The translations under genes were made by a program, and so were the position numbers. DNA of 64,000 nucleotides from Firmicutes bacterium CAG:341 (lineage in GTDB: Bacteria; Bacillota; Clostridia; Oscillospirales; Acutalibacteraceae), in contig FR895304.1 in assembly GCA_000434995.1 (NCBI GenBank), positions 29,582-93,581 of the forward strand. Direction: 5' to 3'. Shown here in pieces: positions 3,541 through 21,626 of the stretch (position 1 is the first letter of the stretch; every line of letters begins with the position of its first letter). The notes below the pieces were generated by a model. The model searched no databases. It worked only from the letters and a program-made list of their open reading frames with translations, and was not told the DNA's origin.

Positions 3541-3579
3541 AACAAAAAACAAGGCAATCGCCAAATGACAATTGCCTTG
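3541..3579 (-). terminator. Rho-independent terminator after the giant Tad-associated gene.
   Basis: 9-bp stem caaggcaat/attgccttg followed on the minus strand by TTTTTTGTT. Confidence 0.6.
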
Positions 3580-3594
3580 TAAAAATATTGATTT

Positions 3595-6500
3595 TTAATA
3601 GTTTTCACCCGGGATATTATCAAGAACATCGCGAGGGAAGAATACACTTGAACCGCCTGTTGCCATATCCGTATTTGAATCATCCAAATCGTAGTTAAAC
3701 ACTTTATCACTTGCGTTGTTATATTCATTTTCAGATATGATAAATATATTACCGCTTTGTGCAAGGTGAAGGTCTAAAGTCCGCCAATTTTGGAATCTGT
3801 GCAAATTGAAGTAATATGCATTATCTTCAATAGTATCAGCAATACCACAGCCCCAAATTTCCTGATACCAGCCGTCAAAATCAAGCTTACCGTTTGGCGC
3901 ATAGAACAATGCACCAAGCTTACCGTAACCGGCAAAATACTTGATATTACCTTGATATGAAGCGATAGAATTAGGAAGCTGTTTAGCATTATATTCTGCG
4001 TTATCTGCCTTTGAGTAGAAGTTGAACAAATTAACATCACCCTTATTTGCAACAAGGTAAGTTAAGCGCATATCTATTGTAGTATTTATGTTTATGTTAT
4101 TATCAGCATAAATAAGAACCGGGAAAGAAGTTTGACCGTCAGCTGATGATGTACCCCTGCTGTCAAAACCTGCAAGACTTGTATTACCCTTGATTGAATC
4201 AATATTCACATTAAGGCTGCTTGCCATACAGGTAAAGTCGTGGCCGAGATAAATAAGTGCGTCCTGCCTGAGTACACACTGGCCTTGAACAAGGCAATCA
4301 TAAGTACCCATAATTGAAGCGTTCTTATTAAGAGTTAATGAACCGAGTGTATAAATACTGCCCTGCTTCGGTTTGAATTCTTCTTTAAGGTTATAGCCGA
4401 ATTTCTTAAGCGCATCGAGTATATCACCCCAAAGTGAACCGTCAGAATCACTTACATACGGTTTATACTTATATGTTGCATTTTTAAAGGTTTCCGGCAT
4501 TACCCATAAATCTGCATTATGCCTTAATGTAAGATATTTAGGAGTAAATACATAGTTACCTACTGCAACTTGCGAATAACCGTATTCAAAGATTTGACCG
4601 CCGTATGATACAAGTGACTGACCGATAAAGAATGTACCACCCTTTGCATTATCGGATGAATCAGCTTGAAGCTCATTCTTAATATTAGCACCGTCATTTG
4701 TAAGCGGTGTATCATTATCATCTTTGCCTGCATCGGTACTTCCGTCAGTCTTTTCATTATCGCCCTTTGAATCCGAATATTCAGGTTCTTTACCTTCGGT
4801 TACACCTTTGGCAGTATTTTCAGTAACGGTATTACCGTTAATAGTTCTTGTATAATCACCGGATTTGCCGAGTTCAATATACGAAAGTGCTGTAACATTA
4901 CCGCCTACCGAAACAGTAGTGCAATCACGAATCTTAATCCACGAAGTTGAAGCCTGCAAGCTGCCGCCTACATGGAATTCACTGTATGAACCGCCTTCAA
5001 CAGAAGTAAGGGCTTTAAGCTTTTTGCCGACATAAATCTTTGCATCGTGGCGAAGAGTTAAATATTTGTTACTTATAAAATCGTCTTTAACTCGAAGGGT
5101 AGTTGAAGCATAAACCTTTGTATACTTTCCGCTTTCAAAGTTACCGCCTACATAGGTGTAACCTGCATTAGCGAATGTGTATTTTTTAAGGCTGTCACCC
5201 TTGGTGAAGAACTTACCGTTAACATCAGACGCTTGTGACCTATCCTCATCATCATCAAGAAGAGATTTACCGATTTCAACGAAATCATCACAAGTGAACT
5301 TACCGTTGATATAGTTCTTGGTCATATCACGAATCTTAGCTGTATCACGAACATACATATTTCCGTTTACAATAATCTTTGAGCAAATATTTTCATCAAG
5401 ACATTGGAAAATAAGGAATCTGTAATCGTTATTTTTAATAAGATTCTCCATTCTTATAGCATCAAGGTCTGATTTCTTGGAACTGTCAAAAATAGCGTTT
5501 TTAATAATACTGATAGTATCAGGATCATTAAGTGACTTTTGACCTGCAACTGCAAGAGTTACATTTTGCTTCATATAAACTCTTGAATAAGTGTAAAGCG
5601 AACCACCTACATAAACATTGGCATTTGAATAAATATCCAAGTCACGCGAATTATTTTCAGGTACTGTTGACAACGACTTAGTCCAAAGACTTTCACCCAG
5701 TGTATTATTAAGCATATTTCCGCCAACATAGAAATATGAACTTCTGTACTTATTAGGGTTTTTATCAAAATCATCGTGGTAAGAACGTTTATCATCACAG
5801 AATGAATAATAAGTAGCATCAACTGCATTATAAGTAAACATTTCAATATTTATCTTTGTAGCACGCTTTGATTGGTAATCCCCGCCTACCATAAAGATAC
5901 TGTTATTACCTGCCGCAATACCTGCACCACCGAAGCAATCACCACCGATAAAGGTATTAGAGTGGTTATATGCCCAAATAGCAGTTGCATAGTACGAATT
6001 ACCACGATTACAATAATCAAGCAAATCTCCGCCTATATAGGTAGTACCCATAGTGAAGTATGAGCCTGCATTACCGTCTTTTTCGTTTGAACCAAGCTTT
6101 AAGTTGCCGCCGATATATACAGTTGCCTTTTTAAACTCAGTGCCGTTAATGCTGTCAACACCATTCATAAATGACATTGACTTTTCGTTTCTCCATTTTG
6201 AAGTGTTTAATGAATCCTTATTCATTTCAACATTGCCTGAAACTGCAAATTTGCCGAGGTTAATTGTAACTATACCGTAAGTGTAATCACCGTCACAGTC
6301 AAAAACAGCATTTTCAGCGTTGTAAAAAGCATTTGAGTTAAGGTTAACTGCGCCGCCGAAGTGCGCTTTAGCATTCTTATAGTTAATAATTGCTGTATCA
6401 CTGTTTATAGCACCGCTTGGCATATCGCACCAACCTGTTATCTGCATACCTGCATTAGAATAAATTTCGCCGCAGTTTTTAACATAACCGTAAAATTTAA

Positions 6501-9500
6501 GTTCATTTGTACCGCCGATATAAAGATATGCATCAACAGTACCGACTGTTTTACCGTTTTTAAGTGAATAACCCTGATGCAGATCACCATCTTCTTTATC
6601 GGTAATATACTGGGATTTACTCCAATCAACATTAAGGTTACCCAAAATATACATCTTGCCATAGTTATAAACTGTGCAAGCCATATTAACATCGCCTTGA
6701 ATACCGAGTGAGCCTGACTTAACAAACAAAGCCTCACCATCATTAAGCGAAACATTGCCGCCTATGTTAGTTGTGCCGGAAAGAACACAAAGTCCTACGC
6801 CTCTGTTTTCCATACCGTCAACCTTGTTTGTACCCTTAATATCGAGTGAATAGCCAATATTGACCGTACCTCTTGTATGCAAAGCTCCCTTAAGTGTGAG
6901 TGTTTTTGAGGCGTCACCGGCAATAAATGTATCTGCATTATCACTTGTAAAAGCAATTTCAGGGTCATTAGTCGAGCCGCCGCTGTTAACTATGTTGAGG
7001 CCACCCATAAGATACATATTACCACCATTTGAAATTTTGGCAGAATGACTAGAGAATGCACTAACACTGCCCAATTGAACCTCATCTTTTATGCAAAGGT
7101 ATCCACCGGATTCAACTTTCAAAGAAGACAAAACAGTTAACGAACCATTATGTGTTATATTACCAAATTCTTTAATTGTTAAAGAATTCAATATCTTATC
7201 TCCGATATTGTCAGCAATGTATAATCCGTTAATTACAACATCCGTTTTCTTACCGGCTGTATCAGTTTGACTTATTGTATGTTTACCGTTTGAGAAGAAT
7301 TCACTTAAATTATCTGCACTTGAACTTTCAACATTTACGACATAAGTGGTCCAAACCGGTGCAAGTGACCAGAATTTAGAACCGCCATTTATATCGATGC
7401 TACTGCAATAATTTTGTGTTGAACCTCCTATTATAATATACGAATTATCATTTAATGTAATTGTCGAGCCATACAAGCCGTTTATGCTGATGTACTTTGC
7501 AACATAAAGCTTTGAAGAAGAATTTAAATTAACTGCATCGTTAGATGAAAGATAGCCCAAAACAATCAATCTATGTGAATTTGACAAGGAAATAGCACCT
7601 GACGACATAGTCAAATTGCCGCCGATGAGGGTTAATCCGCCGTTATTGCCGACAATATTATTATGGCTAACACTAAGCGAACCATAGAGATAAAGTGAAC
7701 CGTCATTAACAAATTGCTTTGAAAAAGTCAAATTTGATTTTGTGGCAGTTTGTTCAATCGAGCCGTCACCTAAATAAATACGAGACTCAGGCTGATTGTT
7801 TGTAAATTCATCTATATTAGATGAAAGAGCATTGATATAGCCGCCTGAATTACCATTCAAACCGAAAATGCTGACAATTGAGCCTTTTTCTCCATTATCA
7901 GAATAAAGTTTAAATCTTCTTTCAATACCGCTGTTAACAATACCAGTTACATATAATTCGCTAGTACCTTTAATTTGCACAGCTTCATTAAATTCAATTG
8001 AATCAGTTTGGGCAGCTTGTAAATCACCTGCACAATAAAGTTTACCTGATTGAAGCTTTAAAGGATATAATGTATTTACATTTTGAACAGAATATATTGT
8101 ACCGGAAATATCCAAACCGGTTTTACCGTTTTTATTTTTATTGCCTTTAAAAATACCGTTTGCGTTAATATTGCCTTTTGCAATTACTTCACTGCCACTA
8201 ACAACGTTAACATAGCAATTAAATGTAATATCGCCCCAACATTCAATGCGGCAAGCGATATTAAATTGACCGCTGTTATCACTTGTTTGAGTAAATACAA
8301 TATCTCTTGCCTGAATCAAACTGCTATTTACAGAAGTGGCTATCCTTTTTGCTGTAAGCTTTCCGTTAACTATAACTTTTGCTGAATCGTAAAGTGAAAT
8401 ATCACCTGTAATTTGTACTGCATTATTAGTATAGACAGCAGATTCATTTGTTAATTGAAGAACGCCATCAACATTAAATCCGGAATTTGCATGAAGCTGT
8501 GACGAATCATTCAAATATAAAGATTTGAATTTAGCCGCACCGTCAACTATGATTTTTGAAGCATTCGTTACAACAAAGTTTTCGGTTACTGTAAACTTAC
8601 CTCTTGTTTGAATGGTATTATTACCTTTCAAATCAGCAGCTTTTATTGTAATATCCGATGAACTTTTTACAGTTGAATTTTCACTTAATCTTAATGTTGA
8701 GTTTACAGTTATAGGGTAACACAAATCTATTGAGTTTGTACCGCCATTTGCGTTAAAATCACCGCAAACAATACCGCCACCCGCATAAAGATTATCTTGA
8801 TTAGCTGCGGTGATATTAACATTATTTAACTGCAAAGTTCCTTTTGCTTTTATAATTCTGTTTGATGCAAAATCATTATGAATCACAGCATTACCGCCGC
8901 AATAAATAACTTGGTTATCTGAGCCGGATGAAAAATCAGTTGAATTACAAGTGATATTTCCCGCAACATAAAGGTTTGAATTGCTGAGCATTGAAAGCTT
9001 TTTGCAATTGAAATTGCCCTGAACTTTAATTAAAGCATTCGAATTTATTGTTACAGCTTTGTTGTCGTCGTTTGGAAGACATGTAAAATTACCATGTGTA
9101 TTTATTTTTGCGCCCTCTCCAAGAACGACATTATCTTTACAAATAACATCGCCGTATGAATTCAGCGTTGCATCTTTGTTTAAAGTCATGCCGTCATCAG
9201 AAGTGGTGGTACCGCCGATATATACTAATGAATTTTCATCGACTGTTGCACTCTTGCAAGCAAAATTACCCTGAACATAAAGGCGCGCGCCGCTTTCCAT
9301 AACAAGAGCTTTGCAATATACATCACCAAAAACAAAAACAACACTGTTCTTTCTGATTTGAAGTTCACCGTCGGAAACATTGATATTGTCTTTAACAATA
9401 AGTGTTGCATTGCCACCTTTTTGGCCTACATCCATATTTTTTCCGTTGGTTACATTAAGTGAGCCGTAAACAACGGATGAAGCAGAACCTGTAATGCTAC

Positions 9501-12273
9501 AAGAATACTTCACAATCGGGAATACTTTATCTGTTGGACTAACATTGCAATTAAACCATTTATTTGTCATATCGTTTTGCTTAGATGTTTCATATGACAA
9601 ACCTGATATTTCAGTTTTATCCTGTGCAAATTTAGCGTTTGACTTCGCATATACTTTTTTATTCGTTTTATCCAAATTCGGCATATAATCTGCAACGTTA
9701 AAGTCTACGCTAATGTCAGGTACGCTGTTATCCTTGTTAACAACTTCGGCAGTTTGCAAATCTGAAACAGAAAAGTCGTTAACTTTATTATTAAATTCAG
9801 CACGCTTATTAAATTCAACAGTATCACCAAGAAAAACATCTGTTTTGTTTGGAAGTGATTGCGATGAAAGGCTATTATAAGTTCCGTCATTTTTAACACG
9901 GTCATACTTTTCAGATACAGAAATATTTTCATCCTTAATCGTTTTCTTTTTAGCCTGAACAGCGTCATTTGCGTATTTACCGCTGATATTATCATCAAAA
10001 TACTTTTTATTGGCAACATCTGCAAATTTATAAGACTTTTTATATTCGTTTACAAACTCACTTGGAGTTTTAAGAACATCTTTAGAATTATAAAGTTTAT
10101 ATCCTTTATAAGTAGTATGATCATCACCTTCGAGTTTAGTGAGACCGCCGCTCTTTGTTTCCATAAACTGAGTAAAGAACGGTGAAGTATCCTTGGATGT
10201 TAATTTTGTAACATTGGAATAAGTCGAGTCATCATAGCTTGTTTTATCAAGGATACCTTGAAGTTGAGTGCCAAGGTCAGCAACAGCAGAACGAACTGTT
10301 GCACTTGAATCAGCATTGGTATCAAAATCATCTTTTGATTTAATTGAATTTGAAACCGACTTATTAGTCATACGAACAAAGTATGGCTTAAGGTTAGGTG
10401 TTGTAATAAATCCGTCTTCGCCAAGTCTTTGCTGGAATGTTTTATACATAGCATACTTGGCGTCGATAGCAGTAGCAGACCTGCTGTATGTTGAACCCGG
10501 GCCTTCGCTGTGTGTATTAGCATAGTCACGGTCAACTTTATCACCTGTGACTTTAATTGTATATTTATTATTACCCGAACCTACTTCTAACTGATAATCA
10601 AGCGTATCTTTTGTATCTGCTTCGTTTTGGAAAAGAAGTTCAGTTGAATTTGCTTTATAAAGTTGGTCTTCATTATTACTGATTTGGTCAAAAAGCTTGC
10701 TTTTTTCAAATACAATGCCGTCAGTTTCAGTTGACGAAGCATTTGTATTGCTGTCAGTATAAGCCTGTTCAAGCATAGCCTTTGAATCGGTTCTGTTTAT
10801 ATCATAAACAATAGCTTCCTGACCGGCAAGTGTAATAACCTTATTATCCTTATCAAAAATAAGATTATCTTTTTGAGCCTTAATTTCATCTTGCTGTTTT
10901 TGTGTGATAACTCCGCTCTTTGACTCAATAAATGCGTCAGCTTTTTGCTGATATTTTTCCTTCAAGGTTGCAAGATTGGTTACATCTGCATAGTCAATCA
11001 TATTGAGAATGGCGAGAGCAGTTTGTGTTTTTTCAATCTTTTGCTGGTTTTGAACATAGAGGTGAACACTGTCTTCATTCCAGCTTGTATTTGTAAAGTT
11101 AATATCCTTTACAGCTGTATAAGTAACCTGACCGTAATCATTAGCAGAATTATCCCCGCTTGTGCTTTGTGTATAGTTTTCATATACATATACAGGGATT
11201 TTTTCCATCTTATATTCAGGTTCTTTTTCATATACATAATTACCGTCGGCATCAGTAATAAAGTTACCGTTTTCATCGGTTTTATAAATAGGGTTACCGT
11301 TAGCATCTTTTTTAGGCTGGTTGGTATAAATTATATTACCTTTACTGTCGGTTTTAGGTACAGGGTTACCGTTTTCATCCTTAACTACTTGGTAAAGGTA
11401 ATTACCGTTTTCATCAGTCTGATATTTAGGTGAGCCATCCGGGTTGACAGCCTGCTTTGGTTTACCGTTGGAATCTTTCTTGGCTTCCTGCAAGTTTCCG
11501 TCTTTAATACGCGAAACATTAACAGCCTGCACGCCGATGTCAATAGTTGAATTTGAATGAATATCACCATTGGTAATAGCTTCCGAAAGGTTAATATGAA
11601 CAAGGTCGGTATAATTCGGAGTTCCACCAAAAAAGCCGATAAGAGGCTGAATAAGGTTTTCATTAACACCATTTAAAAACGACTCAAGACCGCTTGAAAG
11701 AATATTCGTTACAGTACCGGTTCTGCCGTTAATTTGCATTGCAGCGTCAGCGTTAGTACCGTTTGAAGAGCCTGCAAAAAGGGTATAGTTTAAAGCTCTC
11801 GGCATACGGTTAGTATAATCTGCGCTGACTTTTACAAAAGAAGATGAATGAAGCATAAGTGAATCAAGATGAAGAAGAGGGCCAAAGATTGTTCCCGTTT
11901 CAACCTTAACTTCGAGCTTCAAATAACCTGTGGTAAGGTAATCATCCGCAGCGGCAGCTTCGTCAAGAAGACCTCGCTTTGTTATCTTGATTTGAATCTT
12001 ATCTTCATCGTAATTCATACCGTTCTTTTTAAGATATGAAAGCGCAGTTTTCTTCATATCCTCATCAGTAGATTCGATTGAGGCCGCAACAGCAGTAGCT
12101 GCCGAATCAGCAGCATTTTGAAGGCGAGCCTGCCTGTAATAGAATAAACCGAAATCCATAATCATTGCAACAATAAGAAGAAATGCAGTCGTTGCAAAAA
12201 TAGACGCAAACATAACAGCGCCCTGTTCATTACTATGCTTTTTCTTTTGATTATTTGGTTTCAAGTTACTCAC
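3595..12273 (-). CDS. Giant 2892-aa protein with an N-terminal TadG/TadE-like pseudopilin domain followed by long Asn/Gly-rich beta-helix-like repeats. Putative Tad-pilus-associated adhesin.
   Basis: N-terminus GAVMFASIFATTAFLLIVAMIMDFGLFYYRQARLQNAADSAATAVAAS matches the Tad N-terminal (PF13400-like) signature. It is the last gene of the tad operon. GTG/TTG start. Repetitive NxxGxL/GNxxV beta-strand-like repeats run throughout. Confidence 0.8.
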   Translation of the reverse strand: MSNLKPNNQKKKHSNEQGAVMFASIFATTAFLLIVAMIMDFGLFYYRQARLQNAADSAATAVAASIESTDEDMKKTALSYLKKNGMNYDEDKIQIKITKRGLLDEAAAADDYLTTGYLKLEVKVETGTIFGPLLHLDSLMLHSSSFVKVSADYTNRMPRALNYTLFAGSSNGTNADAAMQINGRTGTVTNILSSGLESFLNGVNENLIQPLIGFFGGTPNYTDLVHINLSEAITNGDIHSNSTIDIGVQAVNVSRIKDGNLQEAKKDSNGKPKQAVNPDGSPKYQTDENGNYLYQVVKDENGNPVPKTDSKGNIIYTNQPKKDANGNPIYKTDENGNFITDADGNYVYEKEPEYKMEKIPVYVYENYTQSTSGDNSANDYGQVTYTAVKDINFTNTSWNEDSVHLYVQNQQKIEKTQTALAILNMIDYADVTNLATLKEKYQQKADAFIESKSGVITQKQQDEIKAQKDNLIFDKDNKVITLAGQEAIVYDINRTDSKAMLEQAYTDSNTNASSTETDGIVFEKSKLFDQISNNEDQLYKANSTELLFQNEADTKDTLDYQLEVGSGNNKYTIKVTGDKVDRDYANTHSEGPGSTYSRSATAIDAKYAMYKTFQQRLGEDGFITTPNLKPYFVRMTNKSVSNSIKSKDDFDTNADSSATVRSAVADLGTQLQGILDKTSYDDSTYSNVTKLTSKDTSPFFTQFMETKSGGLTKLEGDDHTTYKGYKLYNSKDVLKTPSEFVNEYKKSYKFADVANKKYFDDNISGKYANDAVQAKKKTIKDENISVSEKYDRVKNDGTYNSLSSQSLPNKTDVFLGDTVEFNKRAEFNNKVNDFSVSDLQTAEVVNKDNSVPDISVDFNVADYMPNLDKTNKKVYAKSNAKFAQDKTEISGLSYETSKQNDMTNKWFNCNVSPTDKVFPIVKYSCSITGSASSVVYGSLNVTNGKNMDVGQKGGNATLIVKDNINVSDGELQIRKNSVVFVFGDVYCKALVMESGARLYVQGNFACKSATVDENSLVYIGGTTTSDDGMTLNKDATLNSYGDVICKDNVVLGEGAKINTHGNFTCLPNDDNKAVTINSNALIKVQGNFNCKKLSMLSNSNLYVAGNITCNSTDFSSGSDNQVIYCGGNAVIHNDFASNRIIKAKGTLQLNNVNITAANQDNLYAGGGIVCGDFNANGGTNSIDLCYPITVNSTLRLSENSTVKSSSDITIKAADLKGNNTIQTRGKFTVTENFVVTNASKIIVDGAAKFKSLYLNDSSQLHANSGFNVDGVLQLTNESAVYTNNAVQITGDISLYDSAKVIVNGKLTAKRIATSVNSSLIQARDIVFTQTSDNSGQFNIACRIECWGDITFNCYVNVVSGSEVIAKGNINANGIFKGNKNKNGKTGLDISGTIYSVQNVNTLYPLKLQSGKLYCAGDLQAAQTDSIEFNEAVQIKGTSELYVTGIVNSGIERRFKLYSDNGEKGSIVSIFGLNGNSGGYINALSSNIDEFTNNQPESRIYLGDGSIEQTATKSNLTFSKQFVNDGSLYLYGSLSVSHNNIVGNNGGLTLIGGNLTMSSGAISLSNSHRLIVLGYLSSNDAVNLNSSSKLYVAKYISINGLYGSTITLNDNSYIIIGGSTQNYCSSIDINGGSKFWSLAPVWTTYVVNVESSSADNLSEFFSNGKHTISQTDTAGKKTDVVINGLYIADNIGDKILNSLTIKEFGNITHNGSLTVLSSLKVESGGYLCIKDEVQLGSVSAFSSHSAKISNGGNMYLMGGLNIVNSGGSTNDPEIAFTSDNADTFIAGDASKTLTLKGALHTRGTVNIGYSLDIKGTNKVDGMENRGVGLCVLSGTTNIGGNVSLNDGEALFVKSGSLGIQGDVNMACTVYNYGKMYILGNLNVDWSKSQYITDKEDGDLHQGYSLKNGKTVGTVDAYLYIGGTNELKFYGYVKNCGEIYSNAGMQITGWCDMPSGAINSDTAIINYKNAKAHFGGAVNLNSNAFYNAENAVFDCDGDYTYGIVTINLGKFAVSGNVEMNKDSLNTSKWRNEKSMSFMNGVDSINGTEFKKATVYIGGNLKLGSNEKDGNAGSYFTMGTTYIGGDLLDYCNRGNSYYATAIWAYNHSNTFIGGDCFGGAGIAAGNNSIFMVGGDYQSKRATKINIEMFTYNAVDATYYSFCDDKRSYHDDFDKNPNKYRSSYFYVGGNMLNNTLGESLWTKSLSTVPENNSRDLDIYSNANVYVGGSLYTYSRVYMKQNVTLAVAGQKSLNDPDTISIIKNAIFDSSKKSDLDAIRMENLIKNNDYRFLIFQCLDENICSKIIVNGNMYVRDTAKIRDMTKNYINGKFTCDDFVEIGKSLLDDDEDRSQASDVNGKFFTKGDSLKKYTFANAGYTYVGGNFESGKYTKVYASTTLRVKDDFISNKYLTLRHDAKIYVGKKLKALTSVEGGSYSEFHVGGSLQASTSWIKIRDCTTVSVGGNVTALSYIELGKSGDYTRTINGNTVTENTAKGVTEGKEPEYSDSKGDNEKTDGSTDAGKDDNDTPLTNDGANIKNELQADSSDNAKGGTFFIGQSLVSYGGQIFEYGYSQVAVGNYVFTPKYLTLRHNADLWVMPETFKNATYKYKPYVSDSDGSLWGDILDALKKFGYNLKEEFKPKQGSIYTLGSLTLNKNASIMGTYDCLVQGQCVLRQDALIYLGHDFTCMASSLNVNIDSIKGNTSLAGFDSRGTSSADGQTSFPVLIYADNNININTTIDMRLTYLVANKGDVNLFNFYSKADNAEYNAKQLPNSIASYQGNIKYFAGYGKLGALFYAPNGKLDFDGWYQEIWGCGIADTIEDNAYYFNLHRFQNWRTLDLHLAQSGNIFIISENEYNNASDKVFNYDLDDSNTDMATGGSSVFFPRDVLDNIPGENY

Positions 12274-12309: not shown

Positions 12310-12966
12310 TTATTCGTTTGTTTCGCCGACATCTTCTACCTTTGAATGAGCAAGTGAAAGCTCTGTCTGAAGACGATAAATCAAGTCTTCAGCTTTATCA
12401 ATTGCACTTTCATAAATGCGTGCAATTTCTGTATACTTTTTATCAGCTTCGTTAGTCATACCTGACTCAATTTCTTCTCTCAAAGATTTAATTTCTGTTC
12501 TGTTTTTATCAACTTTCTTTGTGAGATGTGCAACATCACGCTGCAAATCTCTGTTTTTATCTTCAAGCTTTTTATTTTCTTCGCCTAAAAGTCTATTTTT
12601 AGAAATAAGAGAATCTATTTTTGCTTGGTATTCTTCAACAACAGAAGTGTCAAGGCTTGAACCTTTACTCGTTTCCTGTGCCTGTAAAGTATCACGCTGT
12701 GCGCGTATATCTTCAAGCAATTTTGTTAATTTTTCAACTTCGCCTTTAGATTGCGAAAGTTCGTATTCAAGCATTGATTTAGAATTTTTCAATTCTTCAA
12801 ATCGCTGGTCAAAAAGTTCACCTGCATTTTTATTTGTAGCAAGCAAATTAGAAATATATTCATTTACCTGCTTAATATCGTAGCCGCGTAAAACCTTGTC
12901 AAAACCAAAGTCTTGTGTTGCCGAACCGAGTATTTTGTTTCTGTCAACTACATCATTGTTTGTCAT
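12310..12966 (-). CDS. DivIVA-domain coiled-coil protein inside the tad operon.
   Basis: N-terminal FGFDKVLRGYDIKQVNEYISNL matches the DivIVA/GpsB domain. The rest is heptad-rich coiled coil. Confidence 0.6.
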   Translation of the reverse strand: MTNNDVVDRNKILGSATQDFGFDKVLRGYDIKQVNEYISNLLATNKNAGELFDQRFEELKNSKSMLEYELSQSKGEVEKLTKLLEDIRAQRDTLQAQETSKGSSLDTSVVEEYQAKIDSLISKNRLLGEENKKLEDKNRDLQRDVAHLTKKVDKNRTEIKSLREEIESGMTNEADKKYTEIARIYESAIDKAEDLIYRLQTELSLAHSKVEDVGETNE

Positions 12967-13059: not shown

Positions 13060-13404
13060 TTATTTAAAGTCTAAAACATCACCTTCGGCAAGACCTAATT
13101 TATCAGCCACACCTGAGCAAAGTTCCAAAACTTTATATCCGTTTTTAACCTTTTTTCGCACCTTTTTCGGAGGTACTGCCCTATCAATAAACAATATTTC
13201 ATTATTTTTGGAAAGAGCAACGGTATCAATATCAAAATTCATCCCGAAAGTATGAATTTCATTGCAGGGAGTCAGCAAAAGCCCGTGGTTTTCTGCCATA
13301 CCCTTTCTATACATCAGCCCCATAAAGCGAGTAAAAAAATGATTTGCATTTTCACACTCATCAAGAATAAGCTGGCCGTTTTTATATATTTTCAAAAGTG
13401 CCAT
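13060..13404 (-). CDS. DUF192 (COG1430) family protein.
   Basis: 114 aa. FTRFMGLM...GLLL.PCNEIHTFGMNF.ID..F...N motifs typical of DUF192. Confidence 0.65.
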   Translation of the reverse strand: MALLKIYKNGQLILDECENANHFFTRFMGLMYRKGMAENHGLLLTPCNEIHTFGMNFDIDTVALSKNNEILFIDRAVPPKKVRKKVKNGYKVLELCSGVADKLGLAEGDVLDFK

Positions 13405-14354
13405 TAGAACAAACCGCCTAATCCTCCTGCACCACCCATTTCGTTTTTAACCTGGATGATAACAGGACCTAATACAATGCAAATAATTGCCGGAAGAATG
13501 AGAAATACCGTAGGAATAGTCATTTTGGTAGGTACTTTTGCTGCCACGGTTTTAATTTCTTCCCTCTTATTTATTCTCAACTGCTCTGACTGAGCCTGAA
13601 GAACATTTGTAATAGGAATACCAAGCTGATTTGCCTGAATTACAGCTGATACGAAAGTTTTAAGTTCATCAACATCCGTTGAATTTGAAAGGTCTTTTAA
13701 TGCGTCATTTCTGTTTCTGCCAAGTTGAATTTGCTTAAACACAGTAATAAGTTCATCAATAAGCGGGCCTTCCATACGCTCTGAAATTTTAACAAGCGAA
13801 GCATCAAAGCTAAGTCCGGCTTCCATACATACACTCATAAGGTCAAGCGTATCAGCAAGCTGTGCTCTGATTGCGCCCTGATGTGATTTAACCTTACTGT
13901 TAAGGAACATATTAGGACCAAGAAGTGCTAAAAGAACACCGACTAAAATAGGAATAAAGAAATATTGCGTAACATTTATAAGTAAAATACTAATACCCAA
14001 AAACAATACTATTGTCAAAATGATAAATGCCATTTTGAAAAATTTAAAGTTAGATACTGAAATATGTAATCCGGCTTTTCTAAGCTTTTTTGCTATCTGC
14101 TCATTTTCAGCTTTTACTCTGGCACTCTTGCTTTGATTCTCGTTGTTTTTATTGCTCATTTTGTCAATCATAGGTTTTATGTTTCTTTCATAAAACGATG
14201 TTTCAACATTTTTATAATCAGCCTTAACAACATCTTTGCCAAGTGTTTTCATTCTGCGTAAATTTTTGTCTTCTTCAGTACCTTTTCTTCCTAAAAGCAC
14301 TACAACAATGCATAAAGCAAAACAAGCATATGAAATAACTATAAAAGGTATCAT
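13404..14354 (-). CDS. tadC: Tad pilus inner-membrane platform protein TadC (type II secretion F family).
   Basis: 316 aa polytopic membrane protein with a T2SSF-like domain, adjacent to tadB and tadA. Confidence 0.75.
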   Translation of the reverse strand: MIPFIVISYACFALCIVVVLLGRKGTEEDKNLRRMKTLGKDVVKADYKNVETSFYERNIKPMIDKMSNKNNENQSKSARVKAENEQIAKKLRKAGLHISVSNFKFFKMAFIILTIVLFLGISILLINVTQYFFIPILVGVLLALLGPNMFLNSKVKSHQGAIRAQLADTLDLMSVCMEAGLSFDASLVKISERMEGPLIDELITVFKQIQLGRNRNDALKDLSNSTDVDELKTFVSAVIQANQLGIPITNVLQAQSEQLRINKREEIKTVAAKVPTKMTIPTVFLILPAIICIVLGPVIIQVKNEMGGAGGLGGLF

Positions 14355-14366
14355 AATAACACTTCC

Positions 14367-15359
14367 TTACATTTTGATAGTGGTAATTTTTTTGATAAGT
14401 AAGAAGCAGAGAAGTTCTAATCCACCGGCAACACAAAGAAGTATTATACCGATTTTTTCGTGGAACATAGGTGTTACGAAATCCGAATTTACCAAAGCAA
14501 ACATACCTAATATCGCAACAGGCATACATCCTACAATTGTACCTGACATCTTACCCGAAGCGGTAGCAGATTTAAGTTCCTGCTGAAGTTTCATTCTGTC
14601 CTTAATGGTATCTGAAATATTTTCAAGAATTTGAGAAAGGTTACCACCTGTTTGCCTTTGGACAAGAACTGCCGAAATCATAAGCTGAAGATGCTTACTT
14701 TTAATTCTTGTTGACATCTTATCAAGAGCTTCTTCCATTGAAGAACCCATACTCATTTCTTTAATTACCAATGCAAACTCACTGCTGATAGGGGCATCCA
14801 TATCTTTACTAATAGTTTCCATAGCCTGTGAAAAGCTAAGACCTGATTTTAAACAAGAGCAAGCAATAATAAGCGCATCACTAAGCTGGGATTCAAACTT
14901 TTTAACTTTTTGCTTTTGCTTAATTTTGATTAAGAACATCGGCAGGAAAAGGCAAACAACCATAACAGCCAATGCAACAATCGAGTTTTGCAAGAATAAT
15001 ACAATAAGACCTGCCGGAACAACCGTTACCAAAAGCCAAATTGTCAAAAATTCTTCAGGTCGCATTTTCATATCGGCTCTTTGAAGCTCGGTATAAAGTG
15101 CACTTGCAAATTTTTCAAAAAAGCCGCCCTGCTTTTTCTTTTCTTTATTTTTTGCTTTAATTCTGCTTTCGTGCTTTACTAAAGCATAATTTTCACTGTC
15201 GCCCTCATTTTTTTTGAGTTCATCAAGTCTTTTATCGGCAGCAACTTGATCCTTTGTAAGAATAGAAGAAATAAGAAATGCCAATACAAAACCGAAAAGA
15301 GCAATTGAAACAGCAAAAATGATTGTAATTATAGTAATATTAGTCGAGGAACCAGTCAT
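14367..15359 (-). CDS. tadB: Tad pilus inner-membrane platform protein TadB (type II secretion F family).
   Basis: 330 aa polytopic membrane protein with a T2SSF-like domain, downstream of the cpaF-type ATPase. Confidence 0.75.
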   Translation of the reverse strand: MTGSSTNITIITIIFAVSIALFGFVLAFLISSILTKDQVAADKRLDELKKNEGDSENYALVKHESRIKAKNKEKKKQGGFFEKFASALYTELQRADMKMRPEEFLTIWLLVTVVPAGLIVLFLQNSIVALAVMVVCLFLPMFLIKIKQKQKVKKFESQLSDALIIACSCLKSGLSFSQAMETISKDMDAPISSEFALVIKEMSMGSSMEEALDKMSTRIKSKHLQLMISAVLVQRQTGGNLSQILENISDTIKDRMKLQQELKSATASGKMSGTIVGCMPVAILGMFALVNSDFVTPMFHEKIGIILLCVAGGLELLCFLLIKKITTIKM

Positions 15360-17911: not shown

Positions 17912-18607
17912 TTAGCGTCTTGGATTAAGTATAAGCTTATAATCGTATTCGCTTTCGATTTCATAAAGCTTAAGTGCCTGCTTCTTGGTTACTTCAACAG
18001 TAAGCGTGCTGTATTTAGTAATCTTTGTTCCGCTTTGAGAAGCACTTGAATTTTCGGCATTTGTAGAAACTCTTAAGATTTTTAAATCTTTATAAGCTAT
18101 TTTTGTTGTAATGTTACCTGAATCATCTTTCTTGTTAACAAGTACATCAACTGTATCACCTTCGCTGATATAACCGTCAACACTCTTTACACTGGCTGCA
18201 TCAAATGAATAAGCAACCTTACCCTGCGGAAGTTTAAGTGAAAGGGCAACATCATCACCGTTTTTATCCTGAAGTCTGTTCTTATTGATAGGTTCATTTG
18301 CATAAAGTTTGTCAACAGTAATCATATGAACATTATTAGCATCATCAACAAGCTCTTTTTGAGCTTTGATATAGCTGTCATTTGAATCGGCAGCAAGAAT
18401 TTCTTTTGTGATAATTTGAGGATTATCGCCTTCAAACATATCTGCTGTGATTTCAACATTTTTATCAATATCGGCAGTAGGTATCAATACTGTTACCATA
18501 TCTGCATCTTTAAAAGTTGTTTTCTTATCAATTTCTGTTGCAAACATATATGTAGCAACACCTGCAATAATTGCAAATATTACTGCTATTAAATAAACCT
18601 TTTTCAT
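17912..18607 (-). CDS. cpaB: Flp pilus assembly protein CpaB/RcpC-like.
   Basis: 231 aa. N-terminal transmembrane anchor then a beta-rich periplasmic-type domain, in the canonical tad position. Confidence 0.5.
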   Translation of the reverse strand: MKKVYLIAVIFAIIAGVATYMFATEIDKKTTFKDADMVTVLIPTADIDKNVEITADMFEGDNPQIITKEILAADSNDSYIKAQKELVDDANNVHMITVDKLYANEPINKNRLQDKNGDDVALSLKLPQGKVAYSFDAASVKSVDGYISEGDTVDVLVNKKDDSGNITTKIAYKDLKILRVSTNAENSSASQSGTKITKYSTLTVEVTKKQALKLYEIESEYDYKLILNPRR

Positions 18608-18659: not shown

Positions 18660-19199
18660 TTATACATCATCTGATTTTTCCACTTTAAATATTGAAGTTG
18701 ATGTCAAAGTTCTGTGCATTTTATCCGCGCCTGAACCTAACACCGGTGTGAGCGTTGCGATTCTGCAAGAAACAACCAACTTCACATCGCCATTATACCT
18801 ATTTTTAACATTTCTGTTAGCAGCAACAGCATCCAAATCGTTTGTATATGTTATTGTTACTTTAACTTTATCCACTTTCTTAGGAAGTGAATTTTTAACC
18901 TGCGATAATATATGTACTATCTGTTCAGGGGTGGTATCATCATTAAGTGCGTCAAGCGTATAATCAACCGGACTTTGAACTTGACCGTTAACCATATTAA
19001 CATTCGTATACTCCACGCAAGCTATACGCGCCGCATTACGAGCAGAATTTTCAACCTCAATATAGTTAACAAAAAGCCAACCATAATCAAGAATCAAAAA
19101 CAGTATTATCGCAAAAATAGGAAGAACAAGAACAAATTCAATAATCGACTGGCCTTCTTCTTTCTTTTTTAATCTGTATTTATAAATTTTCGTCATCAT
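18660..19199 (-). CDS. tadE: TadE-like pseudopilin.
   Basis: 179 aa. N-terminus EEGQSIIEFVLVLPIFAIILFLILDYGWLF is the TadE-like motif. Confidence 0.75.
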   Translation of the reverse strand: MMTKIYKYRLKKKEEGQSIIEFVLVLPIFAIILFLILDYGWLFVNYIEVENSARNAARIACVEYTNVNMVNGQVQSPVDYTLDALNDDTTPEQIVHILSQVKNSLPKKVDKVKVTITYTNDLDAVAANRNVKNRYNGDVKLVVSCRIATLTPVLGSGADKMHRTLTSTSIFKVEKSDDV

Positions 19200-19293: not shown

Positions 19294-19464
19294 ACGCTAT
19301 TTATTAGTCTGCATTCAAACGTGTGTCTTCCATCTTACTTGACATATCATTTGTCTTGTTCTTAGCTACATTCTTAATAACTACAAGAGCAACGATAGCG
19401 ATAACTGCAACAATAGCAATGATAAGTACATACTCAAGCATGCCCTGTCCGTTTTCATCCTTAA
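19294..19464 (-). CDS. flp: Flp family type IVb pilin (56 aa prepilin). Not present in the supplied ORF track because it is under 60 aa.
   Basis: Translation MSFIKDENGQGMLEYVLIIAIVAVIAIVALVVIKNVAKNKTNDMSSKMEDTRLNAD. G/XXXXEY processing motif and hydrophobic stretch. AGGAGG ribosome-binding site. Confidence 0.85.
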
Positions 19465-19516
19465 TAAAGCTCATTTGTTTTTCCTCCTTATAAGATTTAA
19501 ATAATTTATTTGTTAA

Positions 19517-20200
19517 TTAAAATATATTTTCCAGCACTACCAGAGAATTAAGCACCGGGAAACACATTGAAATTACTACCGAGACGGAAATAAAAGGTCC
19601 CATGGGGATAAGGGTCTTCATTCCCCCACGCTTTGTTATTTTCAAAAATACGAAAACCAACAAAACCAATATGCCAACTGTGGCCATTGTTTGTAAATAG
19701 CAACCCATATACATTATCAAGCCTACAACTGCACTGTACTTAACATCGCCTGCACCAACAGGAACTTTCAAAAGAGTCGGGATTGTAAAAGCTACAAATC
19801 CAAGAAAGAAACCTATGCCAGCATTAAGCAATGTGTAATTTGTGTGTGTAGTGACGCATTGATAAATCACATATGCCGCCTGAACCACTATCATTGAAAG
19901 CAAAAGCGAATTAGGAATTTTGCGAATCAACGAATCAACTATTGCGATGGTTAACATCGGAAGCAGAAGCACCAAATTTCTTATCAGTGCAATTTCGTCA
20001 TCAGCAGTTAATACCAAACCTACTGAAGCGACAGCCCCTGCCAAAGCTGTTAATATGTAAGTTGACTTTTTTCTTAAAACGATAATATCACCGGGATCTT
20101 CGCTTCTGGAAAGAATCAACCTTTTTGCTAACGGTACTGCGGCAAGCCCTAAAGCAACGCCGAACAAAATACCGATTAAAGCCTTAATAATAATATTCAT
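19517..20200 (-). CDS. tadV: Prepilin peptidase (A24 family, TadV/CpaA).
   Basis: 227 aa polytopic membrane protein directly upstream of flp. Confidence 0.7.
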   Translation of the reverse strand: MNIIIKALIGILFGVALGLAAVPLAKRLILSRSEDPGDIIVLRKKSTYILTALAGAVASVGLVLTADDEIALIRNLVLLLPMLTIAIVDSLIRKIPNSLLLSMIVVQAAYVIYQCVTTHTNYTLLNAGIGFFLGFVAFTIPTLLKVPVGAGDVKYSAVVGLIMYMGCYLQTMATVGILVLLVFVFLKITKRGGMKTLIPMGPFISVSVVISMCFPVLNSLVVLENIF

Positions 20201-20474: not shown

Positions 20475-21626
20475 CTACTTATTGTACTTATTAACTGTAT
20501 ATATTTTTTCGCTGTAAAGTGATAAATTATCTAAAAGTTGCTTTTCAACCGTATCTTTTTTCTTTGCATTGAAGTATTTTACCTTTTTTCTGTTTCCCGA
20601 AGCCTCATAATAAATTATTTTACCTTTTTTGGATTCGGCAATTGCAAATTGGTGCAAAAGTTTATCATCCTTATAAATATCGGCAAAGCTGATTTCGCCC
20701 TCGCTGTCATAGTAAAGTGCAAATTCAGCCATAGCACCCTCATACCCTTGACCTGCTTTATACTCCCTTGAAAGTACATCATCAAAAGTTTTTTGGTATG
20801 TATCATTCTCACTGTATCCGGCATAAGTCACACTGTATTCTTTAACAGATGAAATGTCGCTTGCGCGCATAATTGCACTTTTTTCACTGTTAGTATGCAG
20901 ACCTTTCTCTTCAAGTGCCATCATATATCCAAACCAACCGTAATCGGCAGTATATCTTTCAACGCTCAACACTTTGGCATCAGGCTTTATATTATTTTCT
21001 ATTATATTTATAAACGGTAAAAATGCATTTTTATATTGTTCTTCCCTCCAACTGCGCTCACCAAAAAACGGCAAATCCTTAGTTTGAGCCATACAAGTAT
21101 CAAGAAGTGCGCGGAAAGTTACCACTGTATCAGCCTTATTTTCACCTGCATATTCAAATACATCACTGCAAACAAAATCCACATTATCAAGCCCAAGCTT
21201 TTCCTTAAGCTTATTTGCATTTTCAATTGCGGATGAATTAACATCCACACCGGTAATATGGCAGTTCGGATACATTTTTGCTATAAAGCAAGTTACAATA
21301 CCGCAATCGCAGGCAAGGTCTAATATCTGCTTTGAATCAAAAAGTTCGGCGTAATCAATAATTAAATTTCCCAAATGCCTGAAAAGTCCGCCGTCAAAAG
21401 CCGCTGAAATATAAATAGAGCCATCAAATGTTTCATTCTTTATTTTATAAAACACCATATTACTTGAATTACTGTGCTTTGCACGCGAATTAAGCTCAGC
21501 GGCAACCTTTTGGGTATAATCCTTATTAGTTCTCACAGCAAGGCCGGCAATAAATTCATTAGATGATTTAACATATTTAAGGCCGATTTCCTGCATATAA
21601 TTATCAACTTGTTCGTAAGTTTTCAT
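20475..21626 (-). CDS. Class I SAM-dependent methyltransferase domain protein.
   Basis: 383 aa. Motif I LDLACDCGIVT. Long C-terminal extension of unknown function. Confidence 0.6.
   Translation of the reverse strand: MKTYEQVDNYMQEIGLKYVKSSNEFIAGLAVRTNKDYTQKVAAELNSRAKHSNSSNMVFYKIKNETFDGSIYISAAFDGGLFRHLGNLIIDYAELFDSKQILDLACDCGIVTCFIAKMYPNCHITGVDVNSSAIENANKLKEKLGLDNVDFVCSDVFEYAGENKADTVVTFRALLDTCMAQTKDLPFFGERSWREEQYKNAFLPFINIIENNIKPDAKVLSVERYTADYGWFGYMMALEEKGLHTNSEKSAIMRASDISSVKEYSVTYAGYSENDTYQKTFDDVLSREYKAGQGYEGAMAEFALYYDSEGEISFADIYKDDKLLHQFAIAESKKGKIIYYEASGNRKKVKYFNAKKKDTVEKQLLDNLSLYSEKIYTVNKYNK

Follow-up and report, generated by a model that had tools for sequence, protein, structure and literature searches.

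We analysed a window of 64,000 nucleotides from Firmicutes bacterium CAG:341, which carries a Tad pilus operon on its minus strand (all coordinates below refer to this strand). The genes are arranged in the order methyltransferase, tadV, flp, tadE, rcpC, tadZ, tadA, tadB, tadC, DUF192, a DivIVA-like gene, and a giant gene. The first one encodes a class I SAM methyltransferase (20475..21626), which is found directly upstream of tadV in all loci and is possibly part of the tad locus. It is followed by tadV, encoding an A24 prepilin peptidase (19517..20200; PF01478, 30.2 bits), and by flp (19304..19474), encoding a major pilin of 56 aa that was recognized by its sequence, with G↓QGMLEY at the processing site. 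Its score for PF04964 (21.3 bits) is below the threshold, and the flp orthologs in related loci carry this domain. The pseudopilin TadE (18660..19199; 179 aa; PF07811, 49.1 bits) contains G↓QSIIEF with a Glu at +5, so that Glu5 is present in both Flp and TadE of the operon. Next are rcpC/cpaB (17912..18607; PF16976), tadZ/cpaE (16697-17890; PF13614/CbiA), the gene for the ATPase TadA/CpaF (15340-16692; PF00437), and the genes for the platform proteins TadB (14367-15359) and TadC (13404-14354), both matching PF00482 (T2SSF). A DUF192 protein (13060..13404; PF02643, 65.5 bits; retained in the operon according to synteny) and a cytoplasmic coiled-coil protein of 218 aa whose N-terminal motif resembles DivIVA (12310..12966), likewise conserved in the operon, precede the giant, which begins after a gap of 36 nt. 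An intrinsic terminator-like hairpin with a 14-bp stem and a T-run (3549..3580), located 15 nt past the giant's stop codon, marks the operon end. This is a complete monoderm-type Tad operon, and the upstream tad genes identified by Pfam and sequence confirm the statement of the initial annotation that the giant gene ends it.

The giant TadG-like gene (3595..12273) is present exactly as first described and encodes 2,892 aa when translated from a GTG. Translation from a TTG at 12264, three codons inside the GTG, yields a protein of 2,889 aa and 315 kDa. Both start codons had been called poorly spaced. The purine run AGAAAGGG lies 10 nt upstream of the TTG, whereas the GTG directly abuts it. For this reason, the TTG appears to be the more credible start. 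An ATG at codon 21, chosen by some gene callers, gives too short a protein, since the basic leader and the E-x-G-A motif that are conserved in the family precede it. As claimed before, the protein is rich in Asn, Ser, Gly and Thr (N 10.1%, S 9.2%, G 8.7%, T 7.5%). A non-ATG start and a sequence that looks low-complexity, rich in these four residues, could hint at an artefact, namely an assembly chimera, a pseudogene or a long ORF arising by chance. However, an ORF of the same length recurs in thousands of assemblies from several sources, and orthologs of identical or nearly identical length are encoded on contigs that are independent of each other and reach 300 kb. In the two 90% clusters examined, we counted 2,526 member sequences for P0001 (99% identity to the protein of the window) and 4,224 for P0006 (53-69% identity). 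Full-length collinear homologs (2,300-3,700 aa) were found down to 29% identity, a fold is predicted with confidence, and the overall dN/dS, calculated against a 94%-identical ortholog, is 0.27. This ratio and the thousands of full-length copies indicate a functional gene. At the sequence level, the gene is thus confirmed to be intact, functional and under purifying selection; the collinear homologs, the dN/dS and the number of assemblies refute an artefact, to which we assign practically no likelihood.

Identical gene order was observed in about 40 loci, with identities of the giant down to 29%. The loci sharing this order come from about 50 uncultured gut or rumen species, which are labelled Eubacterium, Ruminococcaceae or Oscillospiraceae. 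In every related locus having upstream DNA, the same tad operon closes with the giant, indicating that a giant terminal gene is conserved, and the downstream neighbours differ between loci. In a syntenic operon, an ordinary TadG of 569 aa (Tad+DUF7305) holds the giant's slot and is preceded by flp-tadE-rcpC-tadZ-tadA-tadB-tadC-DUF192-coiled coil. A phmmer search of 1.84 billion representative proteins returned as close relatives of the N-terminal module only proteins of 2,300-3,700 aa or their fragments; the next relatives were proteins of 300-650 aa with Tad (PF13400) and DUF7305. Co-inheritance with the operon and positional orthology with ordinary TadG argue for a role of the giant in the pilus machine.

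The TadE/G-like N-terminal motif (12082..12222) was delimited with PF13400 and an alignment of N-termini and comprises a basic leader, E-x-G↓A and a hydrophobic alpha1 helix. The PF13400 'Tad' model, whose motif consists of a short polar leader, a G, a hydrophobic helix and LQxAxDAAA, matched residues 18-64 with 26.3 bits (gathering threshold 22.3), which supports the proposed TadE/TadG-like character of the N-terminus, and PF07811 TadE, with 21.6 bits, was just below its threshold of 22.9. The homology extends further. When the N-terminal family profile was compared by hhalign with a profile of 19 ordinary Tad-domain proteins, the two aligned over 145 columns (probability 99.7%, E 4.9e-26), and the match to the ordinary TadG-like proteins spans ~165 residues. 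The corresponding module (residues 1-166; 11767..12264) consists of a long helix followed by three beta-strands according to AF2, which placed the helix at residues 10-61 and the strands at 90-97, 113-123 and 136-146, with a pLDDT of about 70; the first model including this module had a pTM of 0.41 and is of moderate confidence only. A helix plus three strands has also been described for CpaL (PMC12607857). These computations show that the N-terminal ~165 residues of the giant are a TadG pilin-like module.

The E-x-G↓A motif is conserved across the family and is a possible prepilin-peptidase site, with putative cleavage by TadV between G15 and A16 (TTG-start numbering). In the family alignment of N-termini, the spacing from this motif to the next aromatic residue is not conserved. 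After the G↓A site the giant reads AVMFAS, without a Glu at +5, and the canonical type IV pilin motif G↓F/M-T-L-x-E with Glu5 (IPR012902) is absent. In lacking Glu5, the giant resembles the apical GspK/PilK-type subunit. The N-terminal hydrophobic segment is the only one in the whole protein. A sequence scan revealed neither an LPxTG-like motif, in agreement with the earlier description, nor a C-terminal hydrophobic segment, and LPXTG-dependent anchoring by sortase was rejected on these grounds.

Such an N-terminus could also be an uncleaved signal-anchor. The giant would then be a membrane-anchored fibril outside the filament, whose rod of 30-40 nm (see below) crosses the wall and either works as an adhesin on its own or serves the emerging pilus as a spacer or guide. 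The single N-terminal hydrophobic helix in a protein with no other anchor, the lack of Glu5, the putative nature of the cleavage site, and a rod length on the order of the Gram-positive wall, as far as it can be deduced, all fit this alternative. In addition, the TadG of Aggregatibacter was reportedly first described as a membrane protein and not as a pseudopilin. However, the homology covers the whole pilin-like module, helix and beta-sheet, and therefore more than a transmembrane helix. Moreover, the giant is strictly co-inherited with the assembly genes across about 50 species, it is a positional ortholog of ordinary TadG, and current work puts TadG/CpaL/KilN in tip complexes (PMC12075869, PMC13533445). 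We therefore regard an anchored fibril as unlikely.

At the other end of the protein, a C-terminal module (residues 2717-2823; 3796..4116) with the motifs GALFYAPNG and IWGCGIADT was found to share homology with the end of ordinary TadG-like proteins, which is of the DUF7305 type. The hhalign comparison with these DUF7305-bearing ends gave a probability of 95.3% (E 2.3e-8). The PF23981 DUF7305 model, which is present in ordinary Firmicute TadGs, has no direct match here; hmmscan of the C-terminal 300 and 600 aa found nothing even at E<=10. In BLASTP, the giant's C-terminus matched that of P0093, a giant with leucine-rich repeats (LRR), with an E of 2.7e-16. The computed alignments show that the last ~130 residues correspond to the C-terminal module that ends ordinary TadGs of 400-600 aa. 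Beyond it lies a conserved strand, SGNIFIISENEY (3721..3756), which a relaxed hhalign aligned with the last residues of ordinary TadGs, SGNIFIIS being paired with their terminal strand. P0093 ends shortly past its equivalent of this motif. In a model without the N-terminal module, SGNIFIIS is disordered (pLDDT below 50). In TadG/CpaL, the extreme C-terminal beta-strand returns to complete the sheet of the pilin module (PMC13533445), and by analogy SGNIFIISENEY is a candidate for the strand that would complete the pilin module of the giant. Because the N- and C-terminal modules are both homologous to those of TadGs of 400-600 aa, the giant is a TadG ortholog whose middle was expanded in place. 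This refines the original idea of a fusion, as the pilin domain has not been joined to unrelated repeats.

Between the end modules, two regions can be distinguished. The first is a family-specific, moderately conserved mixed alpha/beta region (residues about 167-929; 9478..11766) with no match in Pfam, NCBIfam or the PDB. It contains an insert (residues 256-370; 11155..11499) made up of degenerate DxNGNP beta-hairpin repeats that are 22-24 residues long; this insert is confined to close relatives. The second (residues about 930-2700; 4165..9477) is predicted to form a right-handed parallel beta-helix rod with about 20-23 residues per rung. As had been suspected from the sequence, AF2 yielded this fold with a pLDDT of 83-95 in models that leave out residues 1104-1792; the rod carries a few short helical or disordered inserts. 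By computation, about 1,900 of the residues between the end modules are thus predicted to form a slender right-handed beta-helix of the kind found in fibrous adhesins. Assuming one straight helix and a rise of 4.8 A for each rung, the length estimated from the residues per rung is some 30-40 nm; the rod would be roughly 3 nm wide.

The protein had also been described as repetitive, a label that we rejected in favour of a degenerate solenoid. Self-BLAST found no internal sequence repeats, TRF and a repeat finder returned nothing of note, and at the DNA level the gene contains just three degenerate units of 66-72 nt. Its periodicity lies in the structure, hydrophobic residues recurring with periods of about 6.6 and about 22.7 residues. 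When the whole giant and its segments were searched against Pfam and NCBIfam up to E 10, the N-terminal motif was the only match, and no vWA (von Willebrand factor A with MIDAS), CBM, lyase, LRR, SLH or cell-wall-binding domain was detected. Searches of the PDB sequences with the giant and two family profiles revealed no true relatives; WD40 matches of the ordinary-TadG profile were discarded as repeat noise. Automatic annotation as 'bactofilin' was rejected, since PF04519 does not match and the N-terminus of the giant contains a segment for export or anchoring, as opposed to a cytoplasmic polymer; the label reflects generic beta-helix similarity.

The closest solved folds to the giant's beta-helix are adhesins, namely tapirins, Vag8 and EtpA. 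The fold alone, though, does not separate an adhesin from an enzyme. The beta-helix might be a pectate-lyase- or tailspike-type enzyme (lyase, hydrolase or depolymerase) that is active on polysaccharides. It would be carried to plant fibre, mucin or the capsule of another cell by the Tad machine, either on the pilus or as a secreted product, and in the latter case the machine might work like a secretion piston. We consider such an enzyme improbable. A putative fibre adhesin on a pseudopilin anchor is the best-supported reading.

Sequence variation is concentrated in the rod. The giant is 29-69% identical between loci in which TadA is 75-94% identical, and its conservation profile reveals conserved ends and a variable, indel-rich middle. 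The most variable and indel-rich stretch of the rod (residues about 1000-1750; 7015..9267) also has the highest dN/dS, with 0.50 at residues 1201-1500 compared to 0.09-0.14 at the ends. In other loci, a second giant TadG family with BspA-type LRR, exemplified by P0093, fills the same slot. On this basis, we tentatively propose, though we would not yet favour it, that the TadG slot of uncultured gut and rumen Clostridia is a hot spot in which the apical minor pilin has repeatedly become a fast-evolving fibre of 250-450 kDa, with at least two types of cargo, a beta-helix rod and BspA-type LRR, placed between the same conserved end modules. Giant TadG fibres would be the largest pilin-class proteins known. 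In this reading, the slender rod may have two roles, one as a 'spearhead' that is thin enough for the growing Flp filament to drive it across the thick wall of a Gram-positive cell, the other as a strain-specific adhesive tip on which the specificity for host, fibre or partner depends.

TadG, CpaL and KilN have been described as large modular tip subunits that prime pilus assembly (PMC12075869, PMC12607857, PMC13533445). Like the giant, TadG/CpaL of Caulobacter crescentus has an N-terminal TadE/G-type pilin-like module of a helix and three strands (PMC12607857, PMC13533445), bears a large cargo between this module and a conserved C-terminal strand, and is encoded with tad genes; both are proposed to be apical, assembly-priming subunits (PMC12607857, PMC13533445). 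CpaL, however, is about 600 aa long, and its vWA/MIDAS cargo takes up about 470 of them, whereas the giant (2,889 aa) carries about 2,550 residues without a vWA, its cargo being the alpha/beta region and the beta-helix rod. Furthermore, its host is a monoderm, and its operon lacks a secretin gene and encodes a single partner pseudopilin, TadE, compared to two partners in well-studied tips. In the KilN/KilLMN 'Tip' of Myxococcus xanthus and in TadG of Pseudomonas, Bordetella and Burkholderia, a large TadG homolog forms the backbone of a variable tip and bears a modular C-terminal domain of unknown fold (PMC12075869). These proteins occur in diderms and are much smaller than the giant; several of them represent paralogous tips with a link to predation, whereas only one form, very long and beta-helical, is present here in gut commensals. 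Also related are the uncharacterized ordinary TadG-like proteins of Firmicutes (400-650 aa; PF13400, a short beta-helix and PF23981 DUF7305), which share both end modules and the slot after tadC-DUF192-coiled coil; their middle has about 200-350 residues compared to about 2,550 in the giant, where the family-specific alpha/beta region alone accounts for ~760.

A functional module that is joined to a small pilin module and thereby displayed at the filament tip is also known from PilB/PilC of Streptococcus sanguinis (PMC8179133), and ComZ of Thermus carries a beta-solenoid as a module on a pilin (PMC6561018). Unlike the giant, which belongs to the Tad class, these are T4a or Com-type pilins with a canonical class III signal peptide and Glu5. 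The giant is more than three times the size of the most extreme modular pilin in a 2021 InterPro survey (860 aa). Tapirins share a C-terminal beta-helix fold with its AF2 model, but the chains of their solved C-terminal domains have about 355-410 residues and they are linked to a T4a-type, not a Tad, locus; phmmer and hmmsearch with the family profile against all PDB sequences, tapirin chains included, found no sequence homology. The beta-helical fibrous adhesins of diderms, i.e., the autotransporter passengers Vag8, pertactin and Hap and the TPS proteins EtpA, HMW1 and FHA, use type V export via a beta-barrel or TPS partner; the giant has no such elements and its host has no outer membrane. 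A literature search on DUF7305, giant TadG or beta-helical TadG found no paper. The initial annotation spoke of a largely undescribed architecture. TadG as a modular tip was published in 2025-2026 (PMC12075869, PMC12607857, PMC13533445), so that what is new here is how large the protein is, its beta-helical rod and its occurrence in a Gram-positive gut clade.

Taken together, we consider it rather probable that the giant belongs to the TadG class of minor pilin-like proteins, serves a monoderm Tad (type IVc) pilus and was enlarged about 5-fold into a long adhesive tip; we infer both its location at the pilus tip and its function as an adhesin. Like other pilins, it would be inserted N-in/C-out through Sec. 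Its hydrophobic alpha1 helix would bundle with TadE in the membrane and nucleate the polymerization of Flp, which would bring the giant to the filament apex, the role proposed for TadG/CpaL/KilN. The growing Flp filament would then push the roughly 3-nm-wide rod through the peptidoglycan. Outside, it would provide the pilus with a long adhesive tip that differs between strains and functions in the gut or rumen. Judging from tapirins and other beta-helix adhesins, the tip would probably bind a glycan, fibre, mucus or the surface of another cell.

A variable middle would also be compatible with a contact-dependent antagonism tip that recognizes other bacteria and serves killing or competition, as in Myxococcus Kil. 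Kil tips are built on the large, variable TadG-like KilN (PMC12075869), and giant proteins of Omnitrophota encoded beside type IV filament-like loci have been proposed to function in predation (bioRxiv 10.1101/2023.11.21.568195). However, neither the operon nor its surroundings contain genes for a toxin, for lysis or immunity, or for a T3SS-like partner; adjacent genes have housekeeping roles, and each locus examined has one tip gene set only. Antagonism is therefore very improbable as the function of this pilus.

Tad pili are major colonization factors, and almost nothing is known of them in Gram-positive gut anaerobes. Members of the giant family occur in thousands of metagenome assemblies from gut and rumen, and the present assignment corrects the automatic labels 'hypothetical protein' and 'bactofilin family'. 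With 2,300-3,700 residues, five times CpaL, it shows the reach of the 'modular minor pilin' principle, and it touches on the open question of how the bulky tip of a type IV filament passes through a thick wall. If the rod is the adhesive tip, its variable middle may determine for which niche or host a widespread uncultured lineage is specific, and the giant would be a natural test case for the recently proposed licensing mechanism by the C-terminal beta-strand. With a single straight rod of ~35 nm, the two ends of the giant could not meet, unlike the returning strand of TadG/CpaL. Candidate topologies of the rod are a hairpin, several segments lying side by side, or an arrangement without return to the pilin module.

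The giant tadG-like gene occupies exactly the coordinates given in the initial annotation, 3595..12273 on the (-) strand, with 2,892 codons (2,892 aa) counted from a GTG. The TTG at 12264, three codons inside the GTG, is the likelier start, and AGAAAGGG precedes it by 10 nt. From this TTG the protein has 2,889 aa, a mass of 315 kDa and a pI of 5.2. Residue numbers are TTG-based (ORF/GTG numbering minus 3) except where stated; ORF (GTG) numbering was kept for Pfam coordinates and dN/dS windows. The sole hydrophobic segment comprises residues about 15-41, and scanning of the protein confirmed the absence of LPXTG. Asn/Gly/Ser/Thr-rich repeats had been proposed; the composition is as described, but self-BLAST of the protein detected no internal sequence repeats. 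At the DNA level, only three degenerate 66-72-nt units were found, near 11257-11430. Within residues 930-2700, hydrophobicity recurs with periods of about 6.6 and 22.7 residues. The regularity of the protein is structural, and sequence repeats are absent.

Fifty homologs of 2,300-3,500 aa were collinear with the giant from end to end, with identities down to about 29%. Members were counted in two 90%-identity clusters, headed by the giants P0001 (99% identical to the window protein; 2,526 member sequences) and P0006 (53-69% identical; 4,224 member sequences). Their lengths were consistent (2,780-2,893 aa), on contigs of up to about 520 kb. Comparison with a 94%-identical ortholog (locus L003) yielded an overall dN/dS of 0.27. 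The collinear homologs, the clusters and this ratio rule out a decaying gene or an assembly chimera; the latter had been raised as a concern, and intact copies of the same length were found across ENA, Logan, JGI and NCBI assemblies. The probability that the giant is an artefact is therefore negligible.

Upstream of the giant, on the same (-) strand, lies a complete monoderm-type Tad locus. It comprises a 383-aa class I SAM methyltransferase (20475-21626) directly upstream of the prepilin peptidase gene tadV (19517-20200), a 56-aa Flp pilin (19304-19474; G|QGMLEY), tadE (18660-19199; G|QSIIEF), then rcpC/cpaB, tadZ, tadA/cpaF, tadB and tadC, the last immediately followed by a DUF192 (PF02643) gene (13060-13404), and a gene (12310-12966) for a cytoplasmic coiled-coil protein of 218 aa whose N-terminus bears a DivIVA-like motif. 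This coiled-coil gene is separated from the giant by 36 nt. No secretin gene was found in this operon. The stop codon of the giant is followed by a hairpin with a 14-bp stem and a T-run (3580-3549, -), and the next gene beyond this terminator-like hairpin encodes pyruvate kinase. The remaining genes of the window have housekeeping functions (ATP synthase, PFOR, MetH, LepA, ProRS and beta-galactosidase). Among these, a 673-aa ORF (35040-37061, -) encodes an ATP synthase delta/OSCP domain at residues 19-163 as well as an entire alpha subunit at residues 195-666, and would be a delta-alpha fusion, provided that the ORF was read correctly.

In a survey with a single genome for each species, the giant family was found at 51 loci. 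All belong to uncultured organisms of the gut or rumen that carry the labels Eubacterium sp., Ruminococcaceae, Oscillospiraceae or Clostridia, with human, goat, sheep and red deer as hosts. Eubacterium sp. CAG:251 has the closest of these loci (69% identity). About 40 loci, that is, all with enough upstream DNA, have the identical order methyltransferase-tadV-flp-tadE-rcpC-tadZ-tadA-tadB-tadC-DUF192-coiled coil-giant, and the downstream genes differ from locus to locus. Conservation of the tad operon thus extends to the giant as its final gene, which answers the earlier question of whether related tad loci also end in such a gene. Across loci, identity was 29-69% for the giant versus 75-94% for TadA, so that the giant evolves much faster than the Tad machinery.

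The methyltransferase adjoins tadV in all of the roughly 35 loci with enough DNA, and genes further upstream differ. Since TadV-type peptidases are not known to carry the N-methyltransferase domain found in PilD, it is conceivable that the enzyme is a separate, putative pilin methyltransferase. The coiled-coil gene lies between DUF192 and TadG at every locus of the giant family, and was also present in syntenic operons with an ordinary TadG or a leucine-rich-repeat (LRR)-type giant (L056 6956-7861 and L057 9180-9869). Its DivIVA-like motif, FGFDKVLRGYDIKQVNEYI, scored 17.9 bits with TIGR03544, under the cutoff of 22; the protein could place the Tad machine at the pole or septum. The DUF192 gene after tadC is kept in all related tad operons, and the association has also been reported for Bulleidia extructa (PMC12786226).

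PF13400 (TadE/G-like) matched residues 18-64 (ORF numbering) with 26.3 bits, exceeding the gathering threshold of 22.3, and PF07811 (TadE) fell just short of its threshold; the proposed Tad-type N-terminus is thus upheld by PF13400. When the first 257 residues were searched against 1.84 billion representative proteins, only giants or fragments thereof were retrieved at E<1e-30, and the weaker matches were ordinary proteins of 300-650 aa. Nine of nine scanned ordinary proteins contain PF13400, and seven of them a C-terminal DUF7305 (PF23981). When a profile of the giant family was aligned with a profile of 19 ordinary proteins, residues 2-166 matched with a probability of 99.7% (E 4.9e-26), and residues 2717-2823 matched the C-terminal region where DUF7305 lies (95.3%, E 2.3e-8). 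The motif types G-x-x-Y-A-P-x-G and x-G-x-x-I-A-x-T are common to both C-termini, and in a relaxed alignment the SGNIFIIS strand of the giant aligned with the last residues of the ordinary proteins. Beyond the position of this strand, the giant's last ~45 residues (3628-3720, -) form an acidic, disordered tail, closed in the family by a nearly invariant FF motif (GGSSVFFPRD). A 569-aa ordinary TadG was found in the same slot, in the order flp-tadE-rcpC-tadZ-tadA-tadB-tadC-DUF192-coiled coil-TadG. Because of the homology at both termini and the shared operon slot, the giant is almost certainly the positional and sequence ortholog of the ordinary Firmicute TadG, with the middle expanded from a few hundred to about 2,550 residues. 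Glu5, present in Flp and TadE of the same operon, is absent from the giant; GspK-type apical subunits are not known to carry it either.

Two AlphaFold2 models were built, each with a family alignment. The model of residues 1-1100 (mean pLDDT 72, pTM 0.41) begins with a long helix (10-61) and strands 90-97, 113-123 and 136-146, which match the 'lollipop' of the CpaL pilin-like module (PMC12607857). The part that follows is of mixed alpha/beta type. Within it, residues 256-370 (11155-11499, -) form a DxNGNP hairpin stack of degenerate 22-24-residue repeats (pLDDT about 80), which is restricted to the closest relatives; most other members of the family have gaps over much of it. A beta-solenoid starting near residue 930 was predicted with a pLDDT of about 95, in agreement with the beta-helix fold suspected from the sequence. 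In the model of residues 1790-2889 (mean pLDDT 83, pTM 0.76), the solenoid continues nearly without breaks, with three strands per rung, and ends in a disordered stretch including SGNIFIIS and then the acidic tail. A sequence search of the PDB retrieved no relatives of the giant, and Foldseek gave no assignment for residues 170-930. At about 21 residues and 4.8 A for each rung, the rod of about 1,770 residues would be of the order of 30-40 nm long if it is single and straight, the models ending at 1100 and resuming at 1790.

Conservation in the family is high at residues 1-250 and 1900-2850, and low at residues 800-1750, which are indel-rich, above all 1000-1350. Between close strains, dN/dS was 0.09-0.14 at both ends and peaked at 0.50 in residues 1201-1500 (ORF numbering). 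A second giant TadG-like family (P0211-P0219; 2,570-4,161 aa) combines PF13400 with BspA-type leucine-rich repeats, and one such gene occupies the same operon slot (L057 10001-19474, MAG GCA_002329285.1). Its similarity to the window giant covers the N-terminal module (E 1.7e-13) and the final ~600 residues (E 6.5e-26 and 2.7e-16); its middle is different, and it terminates directly after the SGNIFIIS-equivalent strand. With conserved ends and differing middles, the N- and C-terminal modules therefore serve as a fixed frame around a middle that is cargo and can be exchanged or enlarged. It is improbable that this cargo makes the giant a polysaccharide-active enzyme carried on the pilus.

The architecture had been called largely undescribed. 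This does not hold for TadG as a modular apical minor pilin, known since 2025-2026, and a few family members are already labelled 'TadG-related' in sequence databases; it does hold for the giant form, as our literature search brought up no description of giant TadGs, of beta-helical TadGs or of DUF7305. The giant comes closest to the beta-solenoid pilin ComZ, to the tapirins, adhesins of beta-helix fold encoded next to a type IV pilus locus (bioRxiv 10.1101/359786), and to giant Omnitrophota proteins behind type IV filament-like loci (bioRxiv 10.1101/2023.11.21.568195). The largest modular pilin in a 2021 survey had 860 aa (PMC8179133), compared to up to 3,700 aa in the giant family. On these grounds, the giant is an extreme form of modular TadG.

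In published models, the large minor pilin-like proteins TadG, CpaL and KilN form the backbone of Tad tip complexes, with cargo domains above (PMC12075869, PMC12607857). A Kil-like tip serving antagonism appears very improbable for the giant, and we moderately favor a tip adhesin. CpaL acts like an apical GspK/PilK subunit, and assembly requires its C-terminal beta-strand (PMC13533445); in monoderm modular pilins, grafted modules are presented at filament tips (PMC8179133). As a tip adhesin, the giant would be inserted via Sec so that its alpha1 helix lies in the membrane, associate with TadE to nucleate Flp polymerization, and travel outward at the filament apex. With a width of only about 3 nm, a rod could thread the peptidoglycan, unlike a globule of 300 kDa. 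The rod might also span the wall as a membrane-anchored fibril that never becomes part of a filament, which we consider unlikely. At the tip of a filament, the variable middle of the rod would provide strain-specific binding. A return of the C-terminal strand to the pilin module would require a folded-back or segmented rod, with the hypervariable stretch then lying at its distal end.
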